From Nitrosopumilus sp. (lineage in GTDB: Archaea > Thermoproteota > Nitrososphaeria > Nitrososphaerales > Nitrosopumilaceae): 64,000 nt of DNA. How positions within the stretch are numbered: position 1 is the stretch's first letter; each line of letters begins with the position of its first letter. Location of the stretch: NCBI GenBank assembly GCA_965197525.1, contig OZ240211.1:864001-928000 (forward strand), read 5' to 3'. Below the pieces are notes generated by a model. That model did not search any database. It saw only the letters and a list, made by a program, of their open reading frames with translations, and was not told where the DNA came from. The position numbers and the translations under genes are program-made. Positions 262 to 54,828 of the stretch are shown here, piece after piece.

Positions 262-1014
262 TAGTAAGTGCACATTAGAGATTATTGGCAGTATTGGACA
301 AAAAGCTGTTCATTTTTCAATCAAAATGACATTTGCAATAAGCACTACTAGATCTTTAATCTGAACAGGTTTTTATCATGTATAAAAAACTTGAAATCAA
401 AAGTTCATCAAGGTCGGGGATTTCCTGCCAACATATCTCATCGCATTAATCTTTGGTTCCTATGTCCTGATGTCTTAAAATAACACGTGACGCATATTTT
501 CAAACGTAGCATAATATTCTGACACCAGTGTCATGTTTTGCCTGATGCCAATATTTCTCAATGGCATCAAGCTCTGGCAGTTGGCAGGTATAACATCCTC
601 ACATCCTTGTTTTGGGATACAAAATCAAAAGTTCACGTCCCCTCTTGATTTGTGTCTATGGGAAGATCTATGTGGATTACAGTTAGGCACGGATTAAGGG
701 ATGACATGAACACCTATTATCAAAATCATTTACTATATTTTTTAAGATCTTCTGGTTTTGTGTCCATATCTATGTGAGATCTTTTTAAAGCTTTTGTAAT
801 TTTAAACGTGTGTAAATACAGCTATCGCTAAGATTGGATCATACCCCATATTTTCAAAAAACGAATCGGACACATATCTATTCGAGGATATAACCTCATT
901 ACTATTCTTCGTTCATTCATTAACGATACAGCTGCAGTTACATAACCGGGTATGAAAACCCATATGGACTTCGCAGACAACCGTTAACTATAATTTTTGC
1001 TATGTGCATCATAT

Positions 1015-2268
1015 TCATTTTGCAATCTTTTTCTTCTTTTTTGATTTTTTAACGTGACGTGACGTGATCTCTTTTTGCTGTTTGTTGCCTTCTCTGATAC
1101 ACGTATTGTAGTCAATGCCTTTTGTGAGCATCCAGTAGATTATTCGAAGTAGCTTTGCAGATGCTGCAACTTTAGCTTTGGAAGAACCTCTTTTTGCACT
1201 GATCCGGTTATAAAATCCAGCGATAACATTGCCAGAGGATTTGCCATCCTTCATTACTCTGAGATGTGTTATGATAGATTCACCGAGGACCCATCTTGCC
1301 ATGGTACTTCCACTACGAGTGATACTCCCATGACGTACCATGTCTGCTGAGCCACGAACAGATGGTGCTATGCCCATGTAGGAGACTAGCTTGTCAGGAC
1401 TCGAAAATCTAGAGATCTCGCCAATCTCTGATGCAATAGTCAAAGCTGTAAAATTACCTATTCCCACCACAGATGTCAAGAGCTGGGCAGATTTGTTGCC
1501 CTTTACTGCCTGGGTTATACGCACATCAGTTGACAATATCATATCATTTAGAAAAGATATGGTCTTGAGGTGTGAGTCTATTCTCCAATCTTTTAGTGCG
1601 TATAGTTGTTGGTTATATCTTGAAGAAAACGGCACTCCTTTAATCTTGATTGCATTTTGTAAGAGAATTGCATGTACCAGATTTTTAAATCGAGCTTTTT
1701 CACGTACGAGTTTGGCACGGTGTCTTACAAGCTGTCGTTCCTCTGTGATTTCAGCATTGGGTACGTAGCATGTAGCTATGTATCCTCCACGTAGCATGTC
1801 TGCAAGTATCTTTGCATCCACCTTGTCTGTCTTCTTTTTTGACTCTGCAATTAGTCGTGTCTGGTAGGGGTTTGAGAGAACCACATCCAGGTTTAGGGAA
1901 TCTGTCAGAAATCTGTATACTCCATACCAGACTGAAGAGGATTCTAGTACATATTTTGCATCTTTGGGGTATTTGGAGAATTCTGTCTTTATTGAACCGG
2001 TGTCGTTTTCTACTCTTTGGTTGCGTAATAGTTCTCCGTCGTCGTTTACTACTGCTACTTGAAGAAACACTTTGTGCAAATCTATTCCTACAAATATCTT
2101 TTCTTGTTTTTTGATCTTTTGTAGGGCTACACTCATACTCTTTGTTTTATTTTTCCTCATCTGTTTGTTTGTTTTTGTGCTATTTGGCCTACTTGCTTTT
2201 TTCTTGGCAGACTTTTGTATCTTTGCAGGTTTATGCCGATTACTATCTAAATTTCTTTCTTGTTTCAC
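1015..2268 (-). CDS. IS110-family transposase (DEDD recombinase); probable start at ATG 2136
   Basis: VGIDLHK, LESS, KTDKVDAKILA and C-terminal GIAPSVRGSA motifs typical of IS110. Confidence 0.92.
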   Translation of the reverse strand: MKQERNLDSNRHKPAKIQKSAKKKASRPNSTKTNKQMRKNKTKSMSVALQKIKKQEKIFVGIDLHKVFLQVAVVNDDGELLRNQRVENDTGSIKTEFSKYPKDAKYVLESSSVWYGVYRFLTDSLNLDVVLSNPYQTRLIAESKKKTDKVDAKILADMLRGGYIATCYVPNAEITEERQLVRHRAKLVREKARFKNLVHAILLQNAIKIKGVPFSSRYNQQLYALKDWRIDSHLKTISFLNDMILSTDVRITQAVKGNKSAQLLTSVVGIGNFTALTIASEIGEISRFSSPDKLVSYMGIAPSVRGSADMVRHGSITRSGSTMARWVLGESIITHLRVMKDGKSSGNVIAGFYNRISAKRGSSKAKVAASAKLLRIIYWMLTKGIDYNTCIREGNKQQKEITSRHVKKSKKKKKIAK

Positions 2269-2289
2269 ATATAGTTACATAAGTTTAGC

Positions 2290-2520
2290 ATGATGTGACC
2301 AATACGGTTTGTAGTCCGGTAAAATTTACATACCGATAAACTTTTGATTATCAGTATAGTATCAAATGACCAGCAGTTACTCCGGGTAAAGGGCATACGC
2401 GTGGAACCTGAAAATGCTTCGTTATCAAGTCAAATCCCATCCGATCCACTTTTTTGGATTCAGACTGCGTATCTGCAGTGTCCCCTAATCAGGGGGTAAT
2501 AGCATAACTGCAATTCTATC
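2290..2520 (-). ncRNA. Candidate IS110 bridge/seek RNA region upstream of the transposase
   Basis: Non-coding; hairpins at 2444-2459, 2464-2479, 2482-2495 and long-range stem 2383-2389/2505-2511. IS110 elements are known to encode such RNAs. Confidence 0.4.
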
Positions 2521-2614
2521 TGTGCAAAATGGACCCATGCCATTGTTTCAAAAATAATACACATCGCGATGGTGATAATTACAGTAGTAATAATAATAAT
2601 TGGTGTTCAGGCAA

Positions 2615-2944
2615 TCAATGGTTACTAAACTGAGCATTCCATTTTTTAGACCATCTGCGAACCAGATAAATCTGAATGAGCATTGTTATGCCTATCATTG
2701 GAATATGTAAAATCCAATAAATCGGATCAAATATCCAATCTGGATCATAGTTAGTACTAAAAGACCAAGAGTCAGGAGTGAGAATCATAGAATAGACAGT
2801 GCTTACTACACCAACAATTCCCACATAAACTATCAGCAGATATTTTCTTAAATGTTTGATCTTATAAAATGCAATCAGATCCAATACTGGAAGTATAGAA
2901 TAGATTGTTTGTCTAGTTAAACTCACAGGACCAGTCGCAGGCAT
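2615..2944 (-). CDS. Small membrane protein
   Basis: 109-aa ORF with two hydrophobic segments. Confidence 0.6.
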   Translation of the reverse strand: MPATGPVSLTRQTIYSILPVLDLIAFYKIKHLRKYLLIVYVGIVGVVSTVYSMILTPDSWSFSTNYDPDWIFDPIYWILHIPMIGITMLIQIYLVRRWSKKWNAQFSNH

Positions 2945-3079
2945 ATTGCAAAACTGTAGTCTGAGTATATTTATGATTTGTGAAAGAAGTTTGTTGTAGG
3001 TGCTTCTGTAGAAGTTTTTCCATTCAGACCCGTGTGAACTTTATGAAGTTGTAGTACGTTTGAAGCATGTTTGCAAAGG

Positions 3080-4573
3080 TTAGATCAAAATAAGGAATAA
3101 TGGAACAGGGATCATTGTACATTCGTTATGTATAGAAAGATCATGTTTTGTCAGCATTAATGCCTTTGAAACACCACTAACTTTTTTAAAATCAATAATT
3201 CCCTGCAGATCCTTACGTCCTATATTGTTCTGATACTTGACCTCTATAGGGATTATCAGGTCATTGGCATATATGATGAAATCCACTTCATGACCTTCTT
3301 TTCTTGCCCAATAAGATACCGATTCTTTATAATCAAAACTTGTTTTAAAATTACTTAGATTGAAAGCGAGTCTAACTGAATGATCTGCAATTACATTCTC
3401 GACATACTTGCTTGTAGTAATACTATCCTGAAGTATTTTTAGACTGAATTCAAATGGTTTTTCCTTACGAGACATGGCATTTAGTGCGTGTAAGAAAAAT
3501 AAGTCTTGAAAGTAAATTTTTTTGTGTGAAGAATAGTGTGGTTTTTTCTTCTTGGAATTGTATTTGTATATGTATAAAAGTACAAACATACATGAAAGAG
3601 TCTTGGTATAATTTTCTACGGTATGGTGACTCCCAATATCAGTATCTTTTTTAAGTGACTCCCATGAAGTTGGTGAGCACAAATTTTGGATATAATTGGG
3701 AATTAGTTGTGGAAGATAGTCCTCATTATGAATTCGCTCAATATCACCTTTAATTGATTCCAAGTAGATGGTATAAGTTGACTCGTTAATAAATCCATTT
3801 TCTTGAAAATCGTTTATTGCCAATGGAATACCACCAGTAATCAAATAATTTTTAAAATGTTTATCCAGTGTATTTTGGTATGCTGACAATGATGTCATGA
3901 TACCATCAATATTACCTTCAAGTAAATTATCTAACAAACCAAGACGGGTTGATGAATCCAACAAGTTATTCTCCTCAATGAATTGTTTAATTTCTGAATC
4001 TACTGATGAAACATATTCTGCAAATTTCATTGGAGGCATGATCTTATCTAGAGGATCGTTTTCGGTAACACCTCTTCTACCCGGCATTAATTCTCCACCC
4101 AATCTCAAATCAATAGAATGAGAACCTGTTGCAATCACAGTGCAATTATCTAGTTTGCCTTGATCTTTGAGTTTTTTTATGCCATTTTGCCACCCGGTAA
4201 TATTTGAAATTTCGTCAAGAAATAGAAGAGATCTTCTGTCTTTTCTTAATGATGCACTTCTTTCAATATAAGCATCAACGACATCAGAGACATCTGCAGG
4301 TGATGTTTCTACGTCAAAAGAATAATACATCAGGTTCCAAGGATTCCATCCATTTTGAAGTCGTTCTCTGATCATTAGCTTGACCATAGTTGTTTTTCCT
4401 ACTTGTCTTGGTCCACGAAGTGTATAGATCAGATCTTCCTCGCAAAATTTTTTTTGAATTCTCGGTTCCCATTTTAGTTGAGATTCTTCCCACTTACGTA
4501 TTTGATTATCGTTATTAATTGCGGTAGAATCTTTCCACCATGGATTATACCCTAGGAGTTCATTATAGGACAT
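3080..4573 (-). CDS. AAA+ ATP-binding protein with DUF4143-type C-terminus
   Basis: Walker A GPRQVGKT, Walker B FLDEI, C-terminal EVDF...PIEVK. Confidence 0.85.
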   Translation of the reverse strand: MSYNELLGYNPWWKDSTAINNDNQIRKWEESQLKWEPRIQKKFCEEDLIYTLRGPRQVGKTTMVKLMIRERLQNGWNPWNLMYYSFDVETSPADVSDVVDAYIERSASLRKDRRSLLFLDEISNITGWQNGIKKLKDQGKLDNCTVIATGSHSIDLRLGGELMPGRRGVTENDPLDKIMPPMKFAEYVSSVDSEIKQFIEENNLLDSSTRLGLLDNLLEGNIDGIMTSLSAYQNTLDKHFKNYLITGGIPLAINDFQENGFINESTYTIYLESIKGDIERIHNEDYLPQLIPNYIQNLCSPTSWESLKKDTDIGSHHTVENYTKTLSCMFVLLYIYKYNSKKKKPHYSSHKKIYFQDLFFLHALNAMSRKEKPFEFSLKILQDSITTSKYVENVIADHSVRLAFNLSNFKTSFDYKESVSYWARKEGHEVDFIIYANDLIIPIEVKYQNNIGRKDLQGIIDFKKVSGVSKALMLTKHDLSIHNECTMIPVPLFLILI

Positions 4574-6886: not shown

Positions 6887-7264
6887 GGTTCTGTTGGGTT
6901 ATCGAGACCTAAAACATAGAAATAAATACTTTTGAATCATTACCATAATTATTGAATAGCACGAACACGCAATGTCCAAGATGCGGAAAGATATTCCAAG
7001 AGGACATGCAATGCAAATGTAATATATCGTGTACTAATTGTGGATTGTTCATTGATATGAACACATCATACAAGCTGTCCCCTAGGTTTAGGGATAGTAG
7101 AGATGACATACATGAAGCGCAGTCCGGCACTTTTGAGCAGGCGATGACGGAACCCAGCACATCATTGGTAATCCGAATAGTCGATATGTCAAAGTCGAGT
7201 TATATGGAGAAGAAATTTTGTTAACAAAACAACAAATTTCAGGTCTCGATAACCCAACAGAACC
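6887..7264. mobile_element. 378-bp non-autonomous IS6-type element with passenger ORF
   Basis: Perfect 24-bp TIRs GGTTCTGTTGGGTTATCGAGACCT (6887-6910 / 7241-7264); 8-bp TSD CTACAAAT (6879-6886, 7265-7272). Confidence 0.92.
6952..7224 (+). CDS. Cys-rich (zinc-finger-like) passenger protein
   Basis: CPRC, CKC and CTNC motifs; fills the element interior. Confidence 0.5.
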   Translation: MNSTNTQCPRCGKIFQEDMQCKCNISCTNCGLFIDMNTSYKLSPRFRDSRDDIHEAQSGTFEQAMTEPSTSLVIRIVDMSKSSYMEKKFC

Positions 7265-10626: not shown

Positions 10627-10686
10627 TGTAATAACTTCTAGTTTATTAAAAAGATACTTGTAAATAAATGATCGTAAGAATCAATT

Positions 10687-12323
10687 TGGAATTACATACT
10701 TGGATTACATTATACGTCAATCATATATAATGCGCCGATTATTAACTGGATGGAAAAAGAAATAAAAGATTTTATTTATAGAACAGTGATTGTAAAACCA
10801 AGGCAGACAAAAGAACTGTCATTAAAGGCACGCAGGATTGCAAACTTTCAGACGTATTTTTTCAACATGGGTGTAGAGGCAGGACTAGTTGAAAAATATG
10901 ACAAAATCAAGACAAGCCGTACCATTACTGACATACATCACACCATGCCATGGAGCAACAGATACCACACCAATGTGGCAACAACTGCGTTCCAACAGGG
11001 GCATGATACGGCAGACAAACATTTGAAATCCTGCGCAAAAAAACGTAGGGTACGAAACTGGGCAAAAAAGACTGGCGGCAAGAACCACAACTGGCACACG
11101 TCATTTAAAAATCTCAAACCAAACAAATGGATTGACAGAAACAGTTTGTTCAGAAACTCCAAAAATGCAAAGCATACATCCATAACAGTAAACGGTCAGA
11201 ACCCCTCGCTGAGAATGGGAAAGTGGAAAAAACTGTACATGAACCTGCCTGGTATGGGTCAGGTGGAGCTGTTGTCGTCTTTGAAGAGTCTTCCAAAGCA
11301 ACTGGTATGTGAAAGAGACAAAAACAGCACTAGCAAATTCTACCAGACCAACATTGTATCATACAGGCTTGTTGAGAACACCAAAAAAATCACTGCCAAT
11401 ACAAACGATTCGAACCGCACGTTTGAGATCCATCTGACATTAAAAATACAGAGACCTAAAAATACGAATTGTGTAGTCGTATGCGGAATAGACATGGGGG
11501 TTAAGAAATCCCTAGTCGTTCATAACGGAATAAACACCGATTTTTACAGGACACCTTATTCCTGTAGGAGAAAAAAAGACGATGTAGTCTCAGAACAACA
11601 GTCAAAAAGAGACGGTCACAAACTGCATAGTAACAGATGGAAAAAAGAGGATCGCAAACTGAAGAGGATGAAGAAAACACTCAACAACAGAAGAACCGAG
11701 CACAATAATTTCCTTGCCAAACAGATTGTGATGAGAACAGGAGTGATAGTCATGGAAAAACTAAACATTGGCAATATGACTGCAAAAAATGAAAAGCGGA
11801 AAAGTGGCCTTAACAGGGAGATTTACGGGGCAGGTATGGGAAGAATGGGGGATAGAATAAAAATGACTGCCGAAAACCACGGAACCAAAACGCTTGAGAT
11901 TGTTCCACATTATACCAGCATAACGTGTAGTAAGTGCAATATGATCAACAGCAACTCTAGAACTACCAGGGATGTGTTTCAATGCGTATACTGTGGATTT
12001 CTGTGCGATGCAGACGGTAACGCCGGCACAAACATCAGACACTACGGACTTCCATGCATACGAAGGCTCCCGCTTGTAGACAGATATGGAAACTACAGGT
12101 GTGACAGCATGGAAAATATTATTTTAGCTAATAAAAATGGCACATCTAATAGTGTCAGTATTATTAGTGGCGGTAGGGACTATCGTCACAAGACAGAAGA
12201 ATCAAGACATGGCTTACACCATGTTGTTTCTAAAAAAGACGGCAAGAACCAAGCTGTGAATGATTTGTTGGACTGTCAGAAAAAAACCTTGGTGCAGAAA
12301 CGTAACCTAGGTATATAAGTCCC
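10687..12323 (+). mobile_element. 1,637-bp TnpB-only element, copy 1, with TIRs and 8-bp TSD
   Basis: Imperfect TIR (T)GGAATTACATACTTGGATTAC / GTAACCTAGGTATATAAGTCCC; TSD AATCAATT at 10679-10686 and 12324-12331. Confidence 0.85.
10750..12318 (+). CDS. tnpB: TnpB-family RNA-guided endonuclease
   Basis: RuvC-I GIDMG, RuvC-II VMEKL, Zn finger CSKC/CVYC, RuvC-III DADGNA. Confidence 0.92.
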   Translation: MEKEIKDFIYRTVIVKPRQTKELSLKARRIANFQTYFFNMGVEAGLVEKYDKIKTSRTITDIHHTMPWSNRYHTNVATTAFQQGHDTADKHLKSCAKKRRVRNWAKKTGGKNHNWHTSFKNLKPNKWIDRNSLFRNSKNAKHTSITVNGQNPSLRMGKWKKLYMNLPGMGQVELLSSLKSLPKQLVCERDKNSTSKFYQTNIVSYRLVENTKKITANTNDSNRTFEIHLTLKIQRPKNTNCVVVCGIDMGVKKSLVVHNGINTDFYRTPYSCRRKKDDVVSEQQSKRDGHKLHSNRWKKEDRKLKRMKKTLNNRRTEHNNFLAKQIVMRTGVIVMEKLNIGNMTAKNEKRKSGLNREIYGAGMGRMGDRIKMTAENHGTKTLEIVPHYTSITCSKCNMINSNSRTTRDVFQCVYCGFLCDADGNAGTNIRHYGLPCIRRLPLVDRYGNYRCDSMENIILANKNGTSNSVSIISGGRDYRHKTEESRHGLHHVVSKKDGKNQAVNDLLDCQKKTLVQKRNLGI

Positions 12324-13309
12324 AATCAATTTGTTGCTTTAATAATAACAGAATGCAGTTTGGTACATCGGATTATTGAATATGACTATTTAAGAGTAGA
12401 GCGATGAATGAATAAAATGTAAAAAATATGAAGATTGAAAGAATCAAAAAAGACAAGGTAGTTTGAAATAATAATAATAATAATAAGATAATCCATGGTT
12501 TGGATAAAAAACCAAAAATAAATTTTTGCTTGTTAGAATTTTCTTAGAAGTGTGTATATAATAGATCAGAGATGTTTGATTGAATGTTTTTTAACGGATA
12601 AGAATAAGATGATTTAGTGTGGTTCAATGAATGTAGATATAATTGATAGCGCAGTAAGAATAATTCAAATACGATTAGATAATTAGAATAAGACAAAATA
12701 ACATCCCATACAGAAAAATTCATTCCAGAAAAAGAGATAGACGTGATAGCAACGCACGATTGCTCGGTTTTAAAACACAAACCTAAGAAAAGGATTTGAA
12801 AGAAAGATATTAAAAAATTGTAAATGGAAGATGACAGATACTATGTACTCAAAAATACAATTATTTGAAATAAACTAGATAGTAGAAATGGGGCTGACAG
12901 CCCAACGCATGGACTGCCAGCTGTTCCCCGAACGGTTTGAATTCGATGTCAATTTACACAGTAAAGAATATGATTTAAACGTTTGAAAGTGTGTTAAAAT
13001 CATCATGTAGATACTGCAAAGTCAGATAAAGTTAGTCTCCTAACAATATAAGAATAAACTATAAAACAACTTGGGTTAAGATCAGACAGTGTAGAACTTG
13101 TGAAAAAACAGATGCGGAAATTACGTATTGGTACAACATTGCTTGTGTAGATATTTTCTACCATTAATTAAATTGTAAAAAGGTCCTGCATACGTTAAAC
13201 CAGAAAATGAAAATAAAATGTCAGCATTCAAGATGAAATATGCTTGTTAAAACTAGATTTTATGGCATGTAGATTAAAAAGATTAATAATTTGAATATTT
13301 GATGGACAT

Positions 13310-14509
13310 TTGATGCAAAGAGAGATTGTTTTACTTCTTACATTAATTGTGCTAGGCGGAATTTCGACAAATTATGCATATTCTCAAGATGCTCAACTTG
13401 CAACATTTCAAGAGACTGTGCAAATTATTATCGACAAGAATGTGTCTCAGAATGTTGCAGCATCAATATCTTTGCAGAGTACAAGTATTCAAGAGATTAG
13501 AATTCCGGCCCAATTGGAACAGCAAATTAGAGAAGACAGGCAAGTGACAGCTGTAATTTTTACAAATCAGGATGAATGCATCATGGGCGTGGTTGATAGA
13601 TCATGTATAGTAATGAACATAGCAGCAGATCCAAAGAATGAAGGAATTTTTGAGATTCAAGACGCAGCAAAAGCAGTATCAGAAAAATATATTGACGAAA
13701 TTAACCGGATTTTTGGCACCAAAGCCACGTTCCATTCAGTGTATCTGCAAAGTGGGAATGAGGCAAACAAATCATTAGAGGCCATAACCACAACAACAAC
13801 GGGCAAAGGAGTAATTTCAGCAGTGTATACACTACCAGCATCAGATACTAGCTCTATGTATGAAAAAATATCAGCAATTCTCATTCCAAGAGTGATTAGA
13901 GATAGTGGAGGATTTTATGACATAGCAAAAGAGATATCACATGATGAAAATGCAAGTATGACATTTACAATGGTTCCACTAGAATCAAAATCTCTGTTGC
14001 AGTTAAAATTGTCAGTAGATTATCCAAATAGAGCCGCAGGAATTTCAGAGATTAGCCCATTAGAATTTCTAAAGGCTGAAAGCATAAACAGATCAGATTA
14101 TTTTTCTACTGGATTTTATCCTTTAAACTCGTTAATTCAAGTAATAGTGTTATCACCTGAGAATACAAGCATATCAAAGGCGAAAGGAAATATACTTACA
14201 ACCCAAATTGTGGACGGGGAGAAAATTCCCGAATCAATCACAGAACAAGGATGGATTTTTGATCCAGACCAAGGAAGAGTGATACAAGGAAAGTACATCT
14301 TCGGTGAGGAGACGACGACAAGTAAAGAGAATCTAGAATTTTCATTGAGGGATACAAGTACTCAGACAGAGAAAACAGATCCCCCAACGATAGATCCAAG
14401 TATACAGACAGACAGATCAGAACTAGATGAATCGACGGTTATAATAATTATAATCTCAATAGCTGCAATTATTGCAGCAGTGTTTTATCTTAAAGGATAC
14501 AGAAGATAG
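13310..14509 (+). CDS. Membrane-anchored secreted hypothetical protein
   Basis: Signal peptide plus C-terminal TM helix and basic tail. Confidence 0.8.
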   Translation: MMQREIVLLLTLIVLGGISTNYAYSQDAQLATFQETVQIIIDKNVSQNVAASISLQSTSIQEIRIPAQLEQQIREDRQVTAVIFTNQDECIMGVVDRSCIVMNIAADPKNEGIFEIQDAAKAVSEKYIDEINRIFGTKATFHSVYLQSGNEANKSLEAITTTTTGKGVISAVYTLPASDTSSMYEKISAILIPRVIRDSGGFYDIAKEISHDENASMTFTMVPLESKSLLQLKLSVDYPNRAAGISEISPLEFLKAESINRSDYFSTGFYPLNSLIQVIVLSPENTSISKAKGNILTTQIVDGEKIPESITEQGWIFDPDQGRVIQGKYIFGEETTTSKENLEFSLRDTSTQTEKTDPPTIDPSIQTDRSELDESTVIIIIISIAAIIAAVFYLKGYRR

Positions 14510-14515
14510 GTGTAA

Positions 14516-15067
14516 TTAGATTAAAAGAACAGCTGCTGCAAAGACAGTAGTCCACCTCCCATCCTTATCACCTTTTGCAGATTGGGTAATGTTATGAGTG
14601 TTGTAAATCTCTCCTGAAATTGACCATTGCTGTCTCTTTTCATCCCAATTCTTGTCAGCATCAAATGGAATTCCAAGGGATGATGCAAGCATCTGTGCTG
14701 CAATGTCTTCGGCATAATCACCTGCTTGAGTTTCGTTCTGTCCAAAAGATTCGTACTCAGAGAGATATCCATATCTGCGCGTGTCTTTGGGTTGAGCAAG
14801 ACCTACTGATGCAGCACAAACCCTATGGGGTTCGTTGGTTTGGTTTTTGGAGTATATGGTAAAGAGAATCTGTCCTGGCTTGATTTTTTTTAATCCGTCC
14901 TTTCTAGGGATGAGTTTGGCTTGAGGTGGAAAGATACTAGAGATTAAAACAAGGTTGGTTCCCGCAATGCCTGCATCTCGTAGCGCATATTCAAAGCTAG
15001 TCAACCTATCCTCGTGGACTCCTTTGCCTCGTGTAAGGAATAAATTCTTAGCTACTAGATCTAACAT
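14516..15067 (-). CDS. pdaD: Pyruvoyl-dependent arginine decarboxylase
   Basis: SFEYALRDAGI..NLVLISSIFPP with self-cleavage SS motif. Confidence 0.9.
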   Translation of the reverse strand: MLDLVAKNLFLTRGKGVHEDRLTSFEYALRDAGIAGTNLVLISSIFPPQAKLIPRKDGLKKIKPGQILFTIYSKNQTNEPHRVCAASVGLAQPKDTRRYGYLSEYESFGQNETQAGDYAEDIAAQMLASSLGIPFDADKNWDEKRQQWSISGEIYNTHNITQSAKGDKDGRWTTVFAAAVLLI

Positions 15068-15233
15068 TTCTAAATTGATAAAAAAAAGTTATTATTTATA
15101 CTTTAGAAGTGATTTTAGATTAAACAAATTATAGTATCAGATACGAGCTAATCAATGGATTCGTTGTGTTACCCATGGTTTTCCATAGAATGTGTAGCAA
15201 AAATAGATCGTTACAGAATGAGGATCAGGTGAT

Positions 15234-15476
15234 TTAGTCAGTCCTTCTCTTTTTCTTCTTTCGTTTATCAGGAGCTTTTGGAACCTGAGTCAAAAAGATG
15301 AATGTGAAAAATGCGCCAAGACCCACATTAATGAGAGCCATAAATGTAATCATCACAGTCATGGTTGGCGGAGCAAGAGCTAGACCGATAATTAACCCCA
15401 TTGTTCCAGTAGAATAAAACAACATCATCATAACTTTTACGCGAACAGGCGAAATGTATCTCATAGAAGATGTCAT
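15234..15476 (-). CDS. Small two-TM membrane protein
   Basis: Two hydrophobic helices and Lys-rich tail. Confidence 0.7.
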   Translation of the reverse strand: MTSSMRYISPVRVKVMMMLFYSTGTMGLIIGLALAPPTMTVMITFMALINVGLGAFFTFIFLTQVPKAPDKRKKKKRRTD

Positions 15477-15512
15477 GACATAGCATTATTAAAAATTGAC
15501 GGTAAATTCAAT

Positions 15513-17149
15513 GGGAATTACATACTTGGATTACATTATACGTCAATCATATATAATGCACAGACTATTAACTGGATGGAAAAAGATATAGAAGATTTTA
15601 TTTATAGAACAGTGATTGTAAAACCAAGGCAGACAAAAGAACTGTCATTAAAGGCACGCAGGATTGCAAACTTTCAGACGTATTTTTTCAACATGGGCGT
15701 AGAGGCAGGACTAGTTGAAAAATATGACAAAATCAAGACAAGCCGTACCATTACTGACATACATCACACCATGCCATGGAGCAACAGATACCACACCAAT
15801 GTGGCAACAACTGCGTTCCAACAGGGGCATGATACGGCAGACAAACATTTGAAATCCTGCGCAAAAAAACGTAGAGTACGAAACTGGGCAAAAAAGACTG
15901 GCGGCAAGAACCACAACTGGCACACGTCATTTAAAAATCTCAAACCAAACAAATGGATTGACAGAAACAGTTTGTTCAGAAACTCCAAAAATGCAAAGCA
16001 TACATCCATAACAGTAAACGGTCAGAACCCCTCGCTGAGAATGGGAAAGTGGAAAAAACTGTACATGAACCTGCCTGGTATGGGTCAGGTGGAGCTGTTG
16101 TCGTCTTTGAAGAGTCTTCCAAAGCAACTGGTATGTGAAAGAGACAAAAACAGCACTAGCAAATTCTACCAGACCAACATTGTATCATACAGGCTTGTTG
16201 AGAACACCAAAAAAATCACTGCCAATACAAACGATTCGAACCGCACGTTTGAGATCCATCTGACACTAAAAATACAGAGACCTAAAAATACGGATCGTAC
16301 AGTCGTATGCGGAATAGACATGGGGGTTAAGAGATCCCTAGTCGTTCATGACGGAATAAACACCGATTTTTACAGGACACCTTATTCCTGTAGGAGAAAA
16401 AAAGACGATGTAGTCTCAAAACAACAGTCAAAAAGAGACGGCCACAAACTGCATAGTAACAGATGGAAAAAAGAGGATCGCAAACTGAAGAGGATGAAGA
16501 AAACACTCAACAACAGAAGAACCGAGCACAATAATTTCCTTGCCAAACAGATTGTGATGAGAACAGGAGTGATAGTCATGGAAAAACTAAACATTGGCAA
16601 TATGACTGCAAAAAATGAAAAGCGGAAAAGTGGCCTTAACAGGGAGATTTACGGGGCAGGTATGGGAAGAATGGGGGATAGAATAAAAATGACTGCCGAA
16701 AACCACGGAACCAAAACGCTTGAGATTGTTCCACATTATACCAGCATAACGTGTAGTAAGTGCAATATGATCAACAGCAACTCTAGAACTACCAGGGATG
16801 TGTTTCAATGCGTATACTGTGGATTTTTGTGCGATGCAGACGATAACGCCGGCACAAACATCAGACATTACGGACTTCCGTGCATACGAAGGCTCCCGCT
16901 TGTAGACAGATATGGAAACTACAGGTGTGACAGCATGGAAAATATTATTTTAGCTAATAAAAATGGCACATCTAATAGTGTCAGTATTATTAGTGGCGGT
17001 AGGGACTATCGTCACAAGACAGAAGAATCAAGACATGGCTTACACCATGTTGTTTCTAAAAAAGACGGCAAGAACCAAGCTGTGAATGATTTGTTGGACT
17101 GTCAGAAAAAAACCTTGGTGTATAAATGTAACCTAGGTATATAATTCCC
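15513..17149 (+). mobile_element. 1,637-bp TnpB-only element, copy 2, with TIRs and 8-bp TSD
   Basis: TIR GGGAATTACATACTTGGATTACA / TGTAACCTAGGTATATAATTCCC (19/23 match); TSD AATTCAAT at 15505-15512 and 17150-17157. Confidence 0.9.
15576..17144 (+). CDS. tnpB: TnpB-family RNA-guided endonuclease, near-identical to 10750-12318
   Basis: Same D/E/D RuvC triad (DADDNA) and Zn finger; 522 aa. Confidence 0.92.
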   Translation: MEKDIEDFIYRTVIVKPRQTKELSLKARRIANFQTYFFNMGVEAGLVEKYDKIKTSRTITDIHHTMPWSNRYHTNVATTAFQQGHDTADKHLKSCAKKRRVRNWAKKTGGKNHNWHTSFKNLKPNKWIDRNSLFRNSKNAKHTSITVNGQNPSLRMGKWKKLYMNLPGMGQVELLSSLKSLPKQLVCERDKNSTSKFYQTNIVSYRLVENTKKITANTNDSNRTFEIHLTLKIQRPKNTDRTVVCGIDMGVKRSLVVHDGINTDFYRTPYSCRRKKDDVVSKQQSKRDGHKLHSNRWKKEDRKLKRMKKTLNNRRTEHNNFLAKQIVMRTGVIVMEKLNIGNMTAKNEKRKSGLNREIYGAGMGRMGDRIKMTAENHGTKTLEIVPHYTSITCSKCNMINSNSRTTRDVFQCVYCGFLCDADDNAGTNIRHYGLPCIRRLPLVDRYGNYRCDSMENIILANKNGTSNSVSIISGGRDYRHKTEESRHGLHHVVSKKDGKNQAVNDLLDCQKKTLVYKCNLGI

Positions 17150-17231
17150 AATTCAATAATTCTTTGTAAAAAAGATTTGAAACAGAGTACAGGTAACATT
17201 TTAAACCTTCAAAAATTTCAATTTACTTCGT

Positions 17232-17305
<74 letters not shown>

Positions 17306-17384
17306 TTAAAATTTTAATTCAGTAATGAGATTTTCTATACAAAGGATGATAGTGATAAATAGAGCAGGATTCGAAGTGGAATAA

Positions 17385-18542
17385 ATGGATGATAAAGAGA
17401 GTGTAGTGGATGATAAAGAGAGTGTAGTGGATGATAAAGAGAGTGTAGTGGATGATAAAGAGAGTGTAGTGGATGATAAAGAGAGTGTAGTGGATGATAA
17501 AGAGAGTGTAGTGGATGATAAAGAGAGTGTAGTGGATGATAAAGAGAGTGTAGTGGATGATAAAGAGAGTGTAGTGGATGATAAAGAGAGTGTAGTGGAT
17601 GATAAAGAGAGTGTAGTGGATGATAAAGAGAGTGTAGTGGATGATAAAGAGAGTGTAGTGGATGATAAAGAGAGTGTAGTGGATCACATAGAGCCACTAC
17701 ATCGCCAGGAGATAAAACCAGTTACCCCAAAACACAGCCAAAATGCATCAGTTAAAAAATCCACGTTTAACGCACTAGTTATCGGGGTGATCATACTAGT
17801 AGGAGTTACAGCTTTTCTTGCAGGATCATACACATCAAATCAGGACTCTGATCAGATTTCTGCCGAAGAACTAGAGGAAGCGCTTGCAAAACTAGAGCTC
17901 AGACTGTTACAGAATCAATTACCCAAAAATCAACCACAGGCGGCACCAGCAGCTGCAGGAGGAGTACCACAAACAGATCCAATAAGGATTTCAATAGACG
18001 ATGATCCAATAATAGGCGATCCCAATGCAGCAATAACAATAATAGAATTCTCAGATTTTCAATGTCCATTTTGTGCAAGATTTAACGCACAGACACTTCC
18101 ACCACTTATGGAAGAATACATACAACAAGGAAAAGTAAAGTTAGTGTTTAGGGACTTTCCAATTCAAAGTATTCATCCAAATGCAGTACCAGCGTCGCTT
18201 GCAGCAGAATGTGCAAATGAACAAGGAAAATTCAAAGAGATGCATGACGTACTATTTGACAATCAAAGACAATGGAGTGACATAGATACTGCCGATGCAG
18301 TGTCCATATTTAATCAATATGCAAATAGTATGCAGTTAGATGAAACAGCGTTTAGCTCATGTCTTAATAATGGAAAATACATTGAAGAGATCAACAAGGA
18401 TCTTAGAGATGGCAGATCTTATGGTGTTTCTGGAACGCCGGGATTTTTCATAGGAAATGACCAAGTAGGATATATCGAGATAAAAGGAGCGCAGCCATTT
18501 GAGAGTTTCAAGAGAGTTATCGATGCTCAATTAGGAACATAA
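17385..18542 (+). CDS. DsbA-family thioredoxin-fold protein with N-terminal (DDKESVV)14 and TM anchor
   Basis: FSDFQCPFC CxxC; GVSGTP cis-Pro loop. Confidence 0.92.
   Translation: MDDKESVVDDKESVVDDKESVVDDKESVVDDKESVVDDKESVVDDKESVVDDKESVVDDKESVVDDKESVVDDKESVVDDKESVVDDKESVVDDKESVVDHIEPLHRQEIKPVTPKHSQNASVKKSTFNALVIGVIILVGVTAFLAGSYTSNQDSDQISAEELEEALAKLELRLLQNQLPKNQPQAAPAAAGGVPQTDPIRISIDDDPIIGDPNAAITIIEFSDFQCPFCARFNAQTLPPLMEEYIQQGKVKLVFRDFPIQSIHPNAVPASLAAECANEQGKFKEMHDVLFDNQRQWSDIDTADAVSIFNQYANSMQLDETAFSSCLNNGKYIEEINKDLRDGRSYGVSGTPGFFIGNDQVGYIEIKGAQPFESFKRVIDAQLGT
17388..17681 (+). repeat. 21-bp tandem repeat, 14 perfect units
   Basis: GATGATAAAGAGAGTGTAGTG x14 = 294 bp, in frame. Confidence 0.95.
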
Positions 18543-27646: not shown

Positions 27647-28151
27647 TCCACATATCATTTATTTTATAATAGATATAACAACAATGCATACCAAGAACAA
27701 AAAATTAATGTTGCATGCTTGTCAAATAAATTGGAAGAAGCTAAAATGACTAATTCAGTAAAAAATCCAAAATGATATAGATATTATAAACATTATATCG
27801 TTTCATATGGGGATTATATAGATGGGTTACATTAGCCTCAACTCATAGACAGATCATAAAAAAAGATAGGTGAATGATATTGCATTCAATCGAAAAATAA
27901 TATATTATAATATATTATAATATATTATTTTTTATTTATTTTGAGCCTAACGTAACTAAAATATATAATCCCCTTTCATATTGTAAAAAGTAAGATTTTT
28001 CTGGATATTATAACGATCAATATGAATTCAATTTGACTGGATTTATCTACAGATAAATTTTGGATCTTGACAATAAAAAACTAAATTCATCTTGGCATTG
28101 TAAAAATAAAAAAGTAAGAATTAAAAACAATCTATATCATTTTATCATATC

Positions 28152-54748: not shown

Positions 54749-54756
54749 TAGAATTG

Positions 54757-54828
54757 TGATGGTAGTGGGAATTGAACCCACGTCGTATGGGTCGGAATCC
54801 ATACATCATACCACTAGACCATACAACC
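54757..54828 (-). tRNA. tRNA-like sequence with 8-nt anticodon loop (possible pseudo-tRNA)
   Basis: D arm GTCTAGTGGTATGAT; perfect T arm GTGGG-TTCAATT-CCCAC; anticodon stem TATGG/CCATA around ATTCCGAC; weak acceptor stem. Confidence 0.6.

Follow-up and report, generated by a model that had tools for sequence, protein, structure and literature searches.

[quoted passage not shown] IS200/IS605 elements have subterminal hairpins instead of TIRs and always insert on the 3' side of a fixed sequence of four or five nucleotides, and IS607 is a serine-recombinase element without TIRs or TSDs. The window analysed here (the whole 64,000-nt stretch of a Nitrosopumilus sp. genome) contains two TnpB elements which the first-pass annotation had interpreted otherwise: as non-autonomous elements with TIRs and 8-bp TSDs, moved by a DDE transposase.

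Element architecture and insertion sites

Copy 1 (10687..12323, + strand) and copy 2 (15513..17149, + strand) are 1,637 bp each and 98% identical to each other. The initial description of their contents proved accurate: both encode a 522-aa TnpB with intact RuvC and zinc-finger residues (intact ORF at 10750..12318 in copy 1, ORF at 15576..17144 in copy 2, both on the + strand), and in copy 2 the TAA stop codon (17142-17144) is located inside the right TIR, 5 bp from the terminus. As judged by the ORF list and Pfam, tnpB is the only ORF in each element and there is no transposase gene, and thus the elements are non-autonomous and not insertion sequences in the strict sense. The TIRs are imperfect, as had been noted, with arms that we measured at 26 nt: a repeat search of copy 2 located them at 15512-15537 and 17125-17150 (85% complementary), and we place the left TIR at 15513..15538 (+; GGGAATTACATACTTGGATTACATTA) and the right TIR at 17124..17149 (-; GGGAATTATATACCTAGGTTACATTT when read inward), with the ends of the element being GGGAATTAT and GGGAATTAC. 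A TATA-like box read from the sequence of copy 2 (15548..15557, +; ~25 nt 5' of the ATG) is a putative archaeal promoter, which would yield a near-leaderless mRNA.

Both copies are flanked by exact 8-mers: AATCAATT at 10679..10686 and 12324..12331 in the case of copy 1, and AATTCAAT at 15505..15512 and 17150..17157 in the case of copy 2. While the TSDs are exact as first described, the end of copy 1 is not, since this copy starts with TGG rather than GGG (its first base is T instead of G). Together with an extra T after the right TSD, this suggests that base 1 changed from G to T, or else that the TSD is 9 bp long and one G has been lost. The expectation that each genomic copy would have a private duplication held throughout the 2.21-Mb genome: all seven two-ended copies have an exact 8-bp TSD of their own, and all seven are different (AATTCAAT, AATCAATT, CTAAATCA, CTACTGAA, TAAAAAAA, GTAATCAA and ATGTTAAC). 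By our own arithmetic, an 8-out-of-8 match between flanks has a chance probability of p ~2e-5 at this base composition, and the agreement seen is well beyond what chance would give. The comparison with empty alleles, also proposed in the first-pass annotation, yielded a direct result. In a contig of run X5, from a strain ~94–96% identical to the window genome, the copy 2 site is empty, with position 15512 joined to the sequence that follows 17157 and a single AATTCAAT at the junction. The same strain carries the element at another site (TSD GCCATATG), and the insertion sites of the two genomes differ. Furthermore, once the element and one TSD copy are left out, the window is collinear with six congeners.

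Could these nevertheless be IS200/IS605 (IS1341-type) or IS607-type TnpB elements, with fixed cleavage-site sequences mimicking a TSD? TnpB-only elements classically constitute the IS1341 group, with which ours share a single tnpB, a length of ~1.3–1.6 kb, a multicopy state and a probable 3' omegaRNA, and the pentanucleotide TCAAT is common to both window TSDs. However, the seven genomic TSDs are mutually different, as are those in other genomes, the 26-nt TIRs are kept clade-wide and the empty allele has exactly one 8-mer. The protein models argue in the same direction: the window TnpBs score above the cut-off of NF040570 (guided_TnpB; 116.9 bits, cut-off 100), but far below those of NCBIfam IS200_TnpB (70 versus 425) and NF038280 (IS607_TnpB; 86.7 bits versus 350). 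Neither TIRs nor a TSD are found in IS200/IS605 elements, which insert adjoining a fixed 4–5-nt site (PMC13565253), whereas our elements have TIRs and 8-bp TSDs and lack a fixed flank site; the presence of TIRs and TSDs similarly separates them from IS607. We consider the probability of an IS200/IS605 or IS607 identity to be negligible: it is ruled out by the variable TSDs and the empty allele.

IS1595-type ends and the candidate transposase

The search for a DDE-transposase element sharing this TIR succeeded and, as the first-pass annotation had guessed, the family is IS1595 (the prokaryotic relative of Merlin in eukaryotes). The left TIR is identical at 24 of 26 positions to the end of a DDE-methylase-EndoVII IS1595 element in the congener G017, and the DDE fragment of that element is 88% identical to an ORF in our genome (615175-616176). 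This ORF is intact, encodes 333 aa and matches the IS1595 family transposase model NF033547 with 154 bits (cut-off 75). DDE genes 64–74% identical to it begin ~58 bp inside a GGGRATTATATAC terminus at four loci (L046, L058, L059 and L065), and locus L074 harbours a complete 2,694-bp element (740-3433) with identical 34-nt TIRs starting with GGGAATTATA, a TSD of AAACATAT, and genes for a DDE transposase, a methylase and an Eco47II-like protein. In total, an IS1595 transposase gene is located directly inside a terminus of this family at five independent loci in four genomes. In the autonomous relatives with this terminus, the transposase has a zinc ribbon and a DDE_Tnp_IS1595 domain, and the cargo is methylase/endonuclease, not TnpB. 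The ends of the TnpB element also fit what we take to be the ISNwi1 end signature, ggnnatTAT.

Members of the IS1595 family usually have flanking 8-bp TSDs (PMC8101967). Our elements resemble the family in their 8-bp TSD, their termini starting with GG and the tolerance of passenger genes, and differ from it in encoding no transposase and in having as passenger a TnpB with a putative RNA scaffold that runs into the TIR. Judging from these alignments, the ends belong to IS1595-family transposons. Given IS1595-type inverted ends and 8-bp TSDs, the elements are almost certainly moved by a transposase whose gene lies elsewhere; ORF 615175-616176 is the best candidate in the genome and may be the enzyme that acts on them. 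A search for a TIR pair around this ORF turned up a matching end at 614150, 1 kb upstream, but no right end. Elements that have these TIRs and combine tnpB with a DDE gene were not seen in the 13 foreign loci, the genome or two congeners, and at L109 the only DDE fragment present lies outside the TIRs.

The lack of a transposase in cis, and of a complete element around the genome's own IS1595 ORF, would also be compatible with movement by a non-IS1595 transposase (DDE or other), the likeness of the termini being convergent or the product of recombination; indeed, further IS families have 8-bp TSDs, and many other ISs are present in the genome. We regard this as very improbable in view of the five loci in four genomes at which an IS1595 gene lies directly within such a terminus, of the one complete element with its 8-bp TSD, and of the 24/26 match to the IS1595 element of the congener. 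The DDE-mobilised, non-autonomous nature of the elements that had originally been proposed is thus upheld by the TSDs, the empty allele and the IS1595 ends. With good confidence we propose that the elements are non-autonomous IS1595-family members (with ISNwi1-like ends) of ammonia-oxidising archaea that carry TnpB and a structured RNA as cargo and are moved in trans. An IS1595 transposase with a zinc ribbon and a DDE_Tnp_IS1595 domain, encoded elsewhere, would recognise the ~26-bp TIRs, and its staggered 8-bp cut upon insertion would create the private 8-bp TSD, at sites that are AT-rich and otherwise unspecific.

Is the family still mobile in the window genome? The genomic copies diverge by 0–5%, three of them are disrupted, nested or carry internal deletions, and the sole full-length IS1595 ORF of this type lies outside any intact element, all of which would suit a fossil family that transposed formerly and is immobile now. 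Five copies retain an intact tnpB ORF, however, and the ~94–96% identical strain has the copy 2 site empty and a private site occupied. We therefore view present immobility as rather unlikely, while granting it some weight.

TnpB and the 3' RNA structure

The association of TnpB with these ends extends well beyond the window. Homologues at 41–80% amino acid identity retain GGGRMTTAYATA ends, and perfect 8-bp TSDs flank six of the eight homologue loci (L015, L016, L110, L112, L117 and L118); no TSD was found at foreign loci L109 and L113 nor at L100, a locus of the second family. A more distant member, L120, has the TSD TTCTTTTT. The second TnpB family (~31–33% identity) shares the ends and likewise has 8-bp TSDs, both in our genome and in the congener G018. 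At E<=1e-30 the clade has ~33 representatives among 1.8 billion entries. This compact TnpB clade has thus kept to a single terminus type from a time before its two families diverged (to ~31–33% identity), which makes the partnership a lasting one rather than an isolated capture.

Both window TnpBs match Pfam OrfB_IS605 and Cas12f1-like_TNB (PF01385 and PF07282), and are equidistant from ISDra2 TnpB and mimivirus Fanzor2 (E ~1e-11 each). The clade alignment, which includes sequences down to 41% identity, shows no variation at the residues D248, E336 and D422 or at the cysteines C393/C396 and C412/C415. TnpB is under strong purifying selection, with a dN/dS of ~0.09 across residues 1-430, and is predicted to cleave DNA.

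The 3' end of tnpB harbours a structured RNA, a putative omegaRNA scaffold. In copy 2 a multi-stem structure supported by RNAalifold and a covariance model (16990..17138, +) overlaps the last ~50 tnpB codons (~150 nt) and stops ~11 nt short of the terminus; in copy 1 the core is located at 12164..12282 (+; covariance-model match of 129 bits). In RNAalifold, the last ~250 alignment columns yield 8–10 compensatory pairs with energies of -33 to -42, as compared to 0–3 pairs and -4 to -27 in a sliding-window control over the rest of tnpB. In the covariance-model alignment, which is fitted to the structure and therefore inflates pairing counts, 96.7% of cells are paired and both sides change in 17 of 24 pairs (shuffles: 8.8 +/- 1.5, with 0 of 500 reaching the observed value; slid controls: 2–5). 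Among tnpB genes that are more distant, the model also matches the 3' end at L122 (56 bits), L120, L099 and L102. No match was found in Rfam. Finally, dS is 2–4-fold lower in the C-terminal 92 codons of tnpB. Strong covariation together with lowered synonymous change at the tnpB 3' end fits an omegaRNA scaffold, and this is probably what the structure is.

It is also conceivable that TnpB is inert or exapted cargo, and that the 3' RNA/DNA structure serves transposase binding or transcription termination: no TAM is visible at the insertion sites, and in the view of one review TnpB is of little benefit to DDE cut-and-paste elements (PMC13565253). The proteins themselves speak against inertness, with a catalytic triad and zinc finger invariant at 41% identity and a dN/dS of ~0.09, as does the covarying structure, which occupies the usual position of an omegaRNA scaffold on the sense strand and is kept in TnpBs of ~33% identity. 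As to a role in transposition, the window contains a 165-bp MITE (27809..27973) of the same TIR family (GGGGATTATATA...), with the TSD TTTCATAT at 27801-27808 and 27974-27981. This MITE has the TIRs without the RNA structure, and thus the structure is not needed by the transposase. All in all, we judge inert cargo to be unlikely.

Known TnpB systems and the TAM

The first-pass annotation had likened the elements to Fanzor capture and presented them as a prokaryotic parallel to it. While the DDE-mobilised TIR/TSD element at the heart of that comparison stands, the claimed novelty was overstated. Altae-Tran et al. (2023, PNAS; PMC10691335) described TnpBs that are associated with DDE transposases and enclosed by inverted terminal repeats, together with solo TnpBs that share their ends and are inferred to be moved in trans by a DDE transposase; their criteria were inverted terminal repeats and a tnpB 3' end no more than 250 bp from the transposon end. 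Our TnpB likewise lies inside an inverted-repeat transposon, its 3' end 5 bp from the terminus. The general principle was therefore already published in 2023, although the family named in the text consulted is IS630, to which ISL2 and IS1031 can be added (PMC13565253), and IS1595 is not among them. Unlike in the branches described there, TnpB and DDE in cis were not found here in the 13 foreign loci, the genome and two congeners. A literature search for TnpB together with Thaumarchaeota (ammonia-oxidising archaea) retrieved no paper.

In Fanzor1/Fanzor2* elements, as in ours, a TnpB-family nuclease is the sole gene of a non-autonomous TIR/TSD element, including the Fanzor-only element of SfAV (PMC3627910). 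Fanzors are eukaryotic or viral, whereas our elements have a prokaryotic host, and Fanzor TSDs are short or specific as compared to the variable 8 bp seen here. In Fanzors the RNA extends across the TIR as far as the flanking DNA (Bao & Jurka 2013, PMC3627910; Yoon et al. 2023, PMC10711439), with TIR and TSD reported to lie within the scaffold and the guide to start after the TSD (PMC10711439); in the first-pass annotation the TSD had itself been suggested as the start of the guide. If it behaves like the TnpB and Fanzor systems characterised so far, our TnpB would be loaded with RNA transcribed past the right end into the adjoining DNA, and the loaded nuclease might target the element's own insertion site when it is empty, in a putative homing role.

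The elements provide a clean, well-bounded natural case of a TnpB and putative omegaRNA cassette as a non-autonomous passenger of the DDE family IS1595, and their exact TIRs, variable 8-bp TSD, candidate transposase, MITE siblings and empty-site strain make for a practical study system. The system bears on what an RNA-guided nuclease gives to cut-and-paste or copy-paste DDE elements, and on how a TAM is defined where the target site is not sequence-specific.

TCAAT had been put forward as a target preference or TAM. This proposal failed: among the seven genomic TSDs the motif is restricted to the two in the window, it is missing from all twelve TSDs elsewhere, and the 5' bases are not conserved. 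No conserved motif was found in or 5' of the 20 TSDs (genome, foreign loci and MITE), and hence the TAM cannot be read from the insertion sites. For a homing model, nothing visible in the TSDs and 5' flanks distinguishes empty from occupied sites. While in IS605, IS607 and Fanzor/Tc1-type elements target choice by the transposase supplies a fixed TAM, in our elements it cannot, since the TSD is 8 bp and variable with nothing conserved 5' of it. Speculatively, and with low probability, the TAM of this TnpB clade could be very relaxed or absent, or could be the invariant TIR terminus itself (...TATAATTCCC), with the cut falling beside the occupied donor junction. If the TAM were the TIR terminus, TnpB would have its role in the excision or copying of the DDE transposon and not in homing into empty sites.

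TnpB elements and their target-site duplications

The TnpB element of the window is a real, recently mobile, non-autonomous element of the IS1595 type, carrying TnpB and a probable omegaRNA. Its two window copies, copy 1 (10687–12323) and copy 2 (15513–17149), measure 1,637 bp each, are 98% identical and hold one 522-aa TnpB ORF apiece (10750–12318 and 15576–17144) that matches Pfam OrfB_IS605 and Cas12f1-like_TNB, which agrees with the first-pass annotation. The ends are imperfect inverted repeats, as proposed there, and the repeat search returned 26 nt with 85% complementarity; the tnpB stop codon does lie within the right terminal inverted repeat (TIR), as seen at copy 2 (TAA, 17142–17144). 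The exact flanking 8-mers are AATCAATT and AATTCAAT. Copy 1 starts with TGG, not GGG, and a T likewise follows its right duplication, which leaves open both a G>T change and a 9-bp duplication.

The host, as judged by the archaeal AmoA encoded in its complete genome (2.21 Mb, 39.6% G+C, one contig), is an ammonia-oxidising archaeon. BLAST recovered twelve pieces of the element in this genome, which resolve into five full-length copies whose ORFs are intact, one copy interrupted by a 16.8-kb insertion, one interrupted by a 1.3-kb IS, one internally deleted derivative of 386 bp and one degenerate copy. All genome copies with both ends carry a private, exact 8-bp repeat, namely those of the two window copies and CTAAATCA, CTACTGAA, TAAAAAAA, GTAATCAA and ATGTTAAC. 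By our own arithmetic the chance probability of an 8/8 flank match is ~2e-5 at this base composition, and the repeats are therefore real target-site duplications. The alternative raised at the outset, that a fixed Y1 cleavage site merely mimics a duplication, is rejected: the duplications differ from one another, which removes this scenario, and the empty allele has a single 8-mer.

Logan contigs of four public sequencing runs, aligned to window positions 14900–17380, were decisive. In X5, a run on a related strain from a different study (flank ~94% identical), one contig joins 15512 to the sequence following the right duplication; the copy-2 site is thus empty and AATTCAAT is present once. 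The same run carries the element elsewhere, 96% identical and with GCCATATG on both sides. Furthermore, in six congeneric genomes the orthologous intergenic region upstream of tRNA-Thr is collinear, and gapless at the junction, with the window minus the element and one copy of the duplication. Together, X5 and the six congeners show that the element inserted with an 8-bp duplication and moved after the strains diverged.

The 16.8-kb insertion (C1:33774–50590 of the genome contig, outside the window) splits one TnpB element 55–60 bp from its left end, and carries inverted termini (CAGTTAACCCAAA...) together with the 6-bp duplication ATTAAC. The ~1.3-kb IS, whose ends read CAGTAGTCGGAAATGTAC, sits inside one copy of the element at C1:1331427–1332728 and abuts another next to 562543.

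IS1595-family transposons with the same termini

That DDE transposons can carry TnpB is already published as a principle (Altae-Tran et al. 2023, PMC10691335). That paper distinguishes six DDE branches, and a 2026 review (PMC13565253) attributes the association to the DDE families ISL2, IS630 and IS1031; IS1595 is not among the families named in the text examined. Our full-text literature search returned nothing relevant linking TnpB with IS1595 or Thaumarchaeota. Non-autonomous TIR/TSD elements that carry only Fanzor are the eukaryotic parallel of the TnpB element (PMC3627910, PMC10711439).

The first-pass annotation had proposed capture of TnpB by a DDE-mobilised element with IS1595-like ends, and a DDE transposase with the same TIR is indeed found. 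The genome encodes two DDE_Tnp_IS1595 ORFs, one of which (615175–616176; 333 aa, zinc ribbon and DDE domain) scores 154 bits with the NCBIfam IS1595 model against a cut-off of 75. Relatives of this ORF, 64–74% identical, occur in other genera of the same family and are multicopy in one genus. At four of the relative loci the transposase gene starts ~58 bp inside a GGGRATTATATAC terminus. One related archaeal genome has a complete 2,694-bp element (L074 740–3433, G166:C160) with identical 34-nt TIRs starting GGGAATTATA, the 8-bp duplication AAACATAT, and genes for a transposase, an N6/N4 methylase and an Eco47II-like endonuclease. A transposase-methylase-endonuclease VII element of a congener (L020 143–1776, G017:C1) ends in GGGGATTACATACTTGGGTTACATTAGG, a terminus that agrees with the left TIR of the TnpB element in 24/26 positions; the transposase of this congener element, a fragment, shares 88% identity with the intact ORF 615175–616176. 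In the published description (PMC8101967), IS1595-family elements generally have 8-bp duplications at their flanks and encode zinc-finger and DDE_Tnp_IS1595 domains, and 5'-GG termini are conserved in the Merlin elements, which are their relatives in eukaryotes. We conclude that the TnpB elements descend from an IS1595-family lineage of transposons as non-autonomous members, and that their mobilisation is very probably in trans.

Among the loci and genomes examined, no element holds tnpB and a transposase together. The candidate transposase of this genome, ORF 615175–616176, lies outside any intact element: a matching end is located 1 kb upstream, at 614150, and there is no right TIR within 24 kb. 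C1:614150–616176 and the truncated 1394730–1395940 have in common a 30-nt terminus (GGGGATTATATACATGGGTATACTTGGTTC) and the first part of the IS1595 transposase gene, with ~900 bp of unrelated sequence between terminus and gene, and at 614150–616176 a tRNA-like sequence lies directly upstream of the gene. The second IS1595 ORF (338464–339318) was rejected as the partner of the GGTTCTGT TnpB family; the end beside it, at 338241, is part of a ~165-bp MITE and not a gene boundary. Separately, L074 740–3433 and L020 143–1776 are instances of restriction-modification-like cargo on IS1595-family transposons of related archaea.

The TnpB clade and other TnpB families

Relatives of this TnpB are few: a search of 5.8 billion sequences yields 18 clusters at E<1e-90, and one of 1.84 billion yields 33 representatives at E<=1e-30, as compared to 16,886 TnpB-like matches overall. 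The relatives come from ENA/Logan contigs only, and we examined the surrounding DNA for thirteen of them; a related-locus search of species genomes gave a single weak locus, and that of JGI metagenomes gave none. All homologues of 41–80% identity have the termini GGGRMTTAYATA...TATAAKYCCC, and 6/8 of those with two ends are flanked by perfect 8-bp duplications (TCATGTCT, TTGAATTT, TTTTATTT, TTTATCTT, GGTATTGA and TGAATTTT); P0117, a more distant member, has the duplication TTCTTTTT. A second TnpB family, 31–33% identical, has the same type of terminus and 8-bp duplications both in this genome (1984842–1986191, ACAATAAA/ACAACAAA) and in a congener (TCATGTGG; CAGCATCA/CGGCATCA). Finally, a 165-bp MITE at window 27809–27973, which has TIRs of the GGGGATTATATA type and TTTCATAT as its 8-bp duplication, belongs to the terminus family of the TnpB elements and has neither tnpB nor the conserved RNA. 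Since ends and duplications are kept across the homologues, the second family and the MITE, the link between this TnpB lineage and its termini is old and stable.

Some 2 kb from the element of P0117, an intermediate TnpB (L120 / L121 4001–5431), lies a gene for a family-B DNA polymerase in which LAGLIDADG matches are faint; the surroundings may belong to a virus or to some other mobile element. A second and much larger TnpB family in this genome consists of ~400-aa proteins in 1,331-bp elements with about 35 ends genome-wide (for example C1 635341–636672, 2206174–2207504 and 210771–212102, with a fragment at about window 6987–7200), perfect 27-bp TIRs (GGTTCTGTTGGGTTAACGGGTGTTGA) and 8-bp duplications (AGATTAAG, AGTTGTAT, ATGTGGAA/ATATGGAA). 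The abundance of this family makes the TIR/duplication type the dominant form of TnpB in the genome.

The nuclease, its 3' RNA and the target

The RuvC D/E/D triad and zinc finger, annotated as intact, correspond to D248, E336, D422 and two CxxC pairs, all invariant across the clade. The protein passes the NCBIfam guided_TnpB cut-off and scores far below the IS200- and IS607-specific models. Among solved structures in the PDB it is equally distant from ISDra2 TnpB (9e-12) and mimivirus Fanzor2 (1e-11); an AlphaFold2 model from a 10-sequence alignment (mean pLDDT 52.9, RuvC half <50) was too poor for a fold search. Over residues 1–430, dN/dS is ~0.09 with dS of 1.0–1.7 (Nei-Gojobori). In the last 92 codons dS drops 2–4-fold and dN does not, a pattern that marks a second constraint, acting at the nucleotide level.

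For ten clade members, the RNAalifold prediction at window 16993–17138 is a structure of several stems with many compensatory pairs. In a sliding-window control along the whole-gene codon alignment only the last ~250 columns stand out, with 8–10 compensatory pairs and -33 to -42 kcal/mol as compared to 0–3 pairs and -4 to -27 elsewhere; the opposite strand has fewer. A covariance model of the RNA core (119 positions) recovers both window copies and the 3' ends of more distant tnpB genes, the second family included. In its alignment, which is fitted to the model and so favours pairing, 96.7% of cells pair and both sides change in 17/24 pairs, a count that falls to 8.8 +/- 1.5 in shuffles (0/500 reach the observed value) and to 2–5 for slid structures. 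No Rfam family matches the elements. As judged by position, strand, size and conservation, the 3' structure is probably the omegaRNA scaffold of TnpB. In X1, a sponge metatranscriptome, a contig spans 16964–17149 and continues 251 nt past the right end at another locus, though contigs from an RNA library cannot show transcription, strand or ends, and X1 does not count among the evidence. At L016 7421–7578, in one homologue, the ACGGC-loop-GCCGT hairpin of the conserved 3' RNA is tandemly duplicated by a 39-nt insertion that keeps the frame.

TCAAT, initially suggested as a target preference or target-adjacent motif (TAM), is rejected: only the two window copies have it, and neither the five other genome duplications nor any of those found elsewhere contain it. 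Conservation is also lacking in the five bases before the duplication, in the genome and elsewhere, and the insertion sites thus reveal no TAM. The first-pass proposal that the guide begins with the duplication would hold if the scaffold stopped at the element terminus. For Fanzors in TIR/TSD transposons, on the published reading, TIR and TSD belong to the scaffold and the RNA runs ~15 nt past the TSD (PMC10711439); the variable 8-mer cannot be a conserved part of the scaffold.

Two further features of the window were recorded. At 17386–17684, where ORF 17385–18542 starts, short words recur over at least 100 nt, probably as a tandem repeat within coding sequence. The tRNA that ARAGORN calls at 54756–54828 (minus strand), with no type assigned, has four bases in its anticodon (tccg) and may contain an intron or be unusual.
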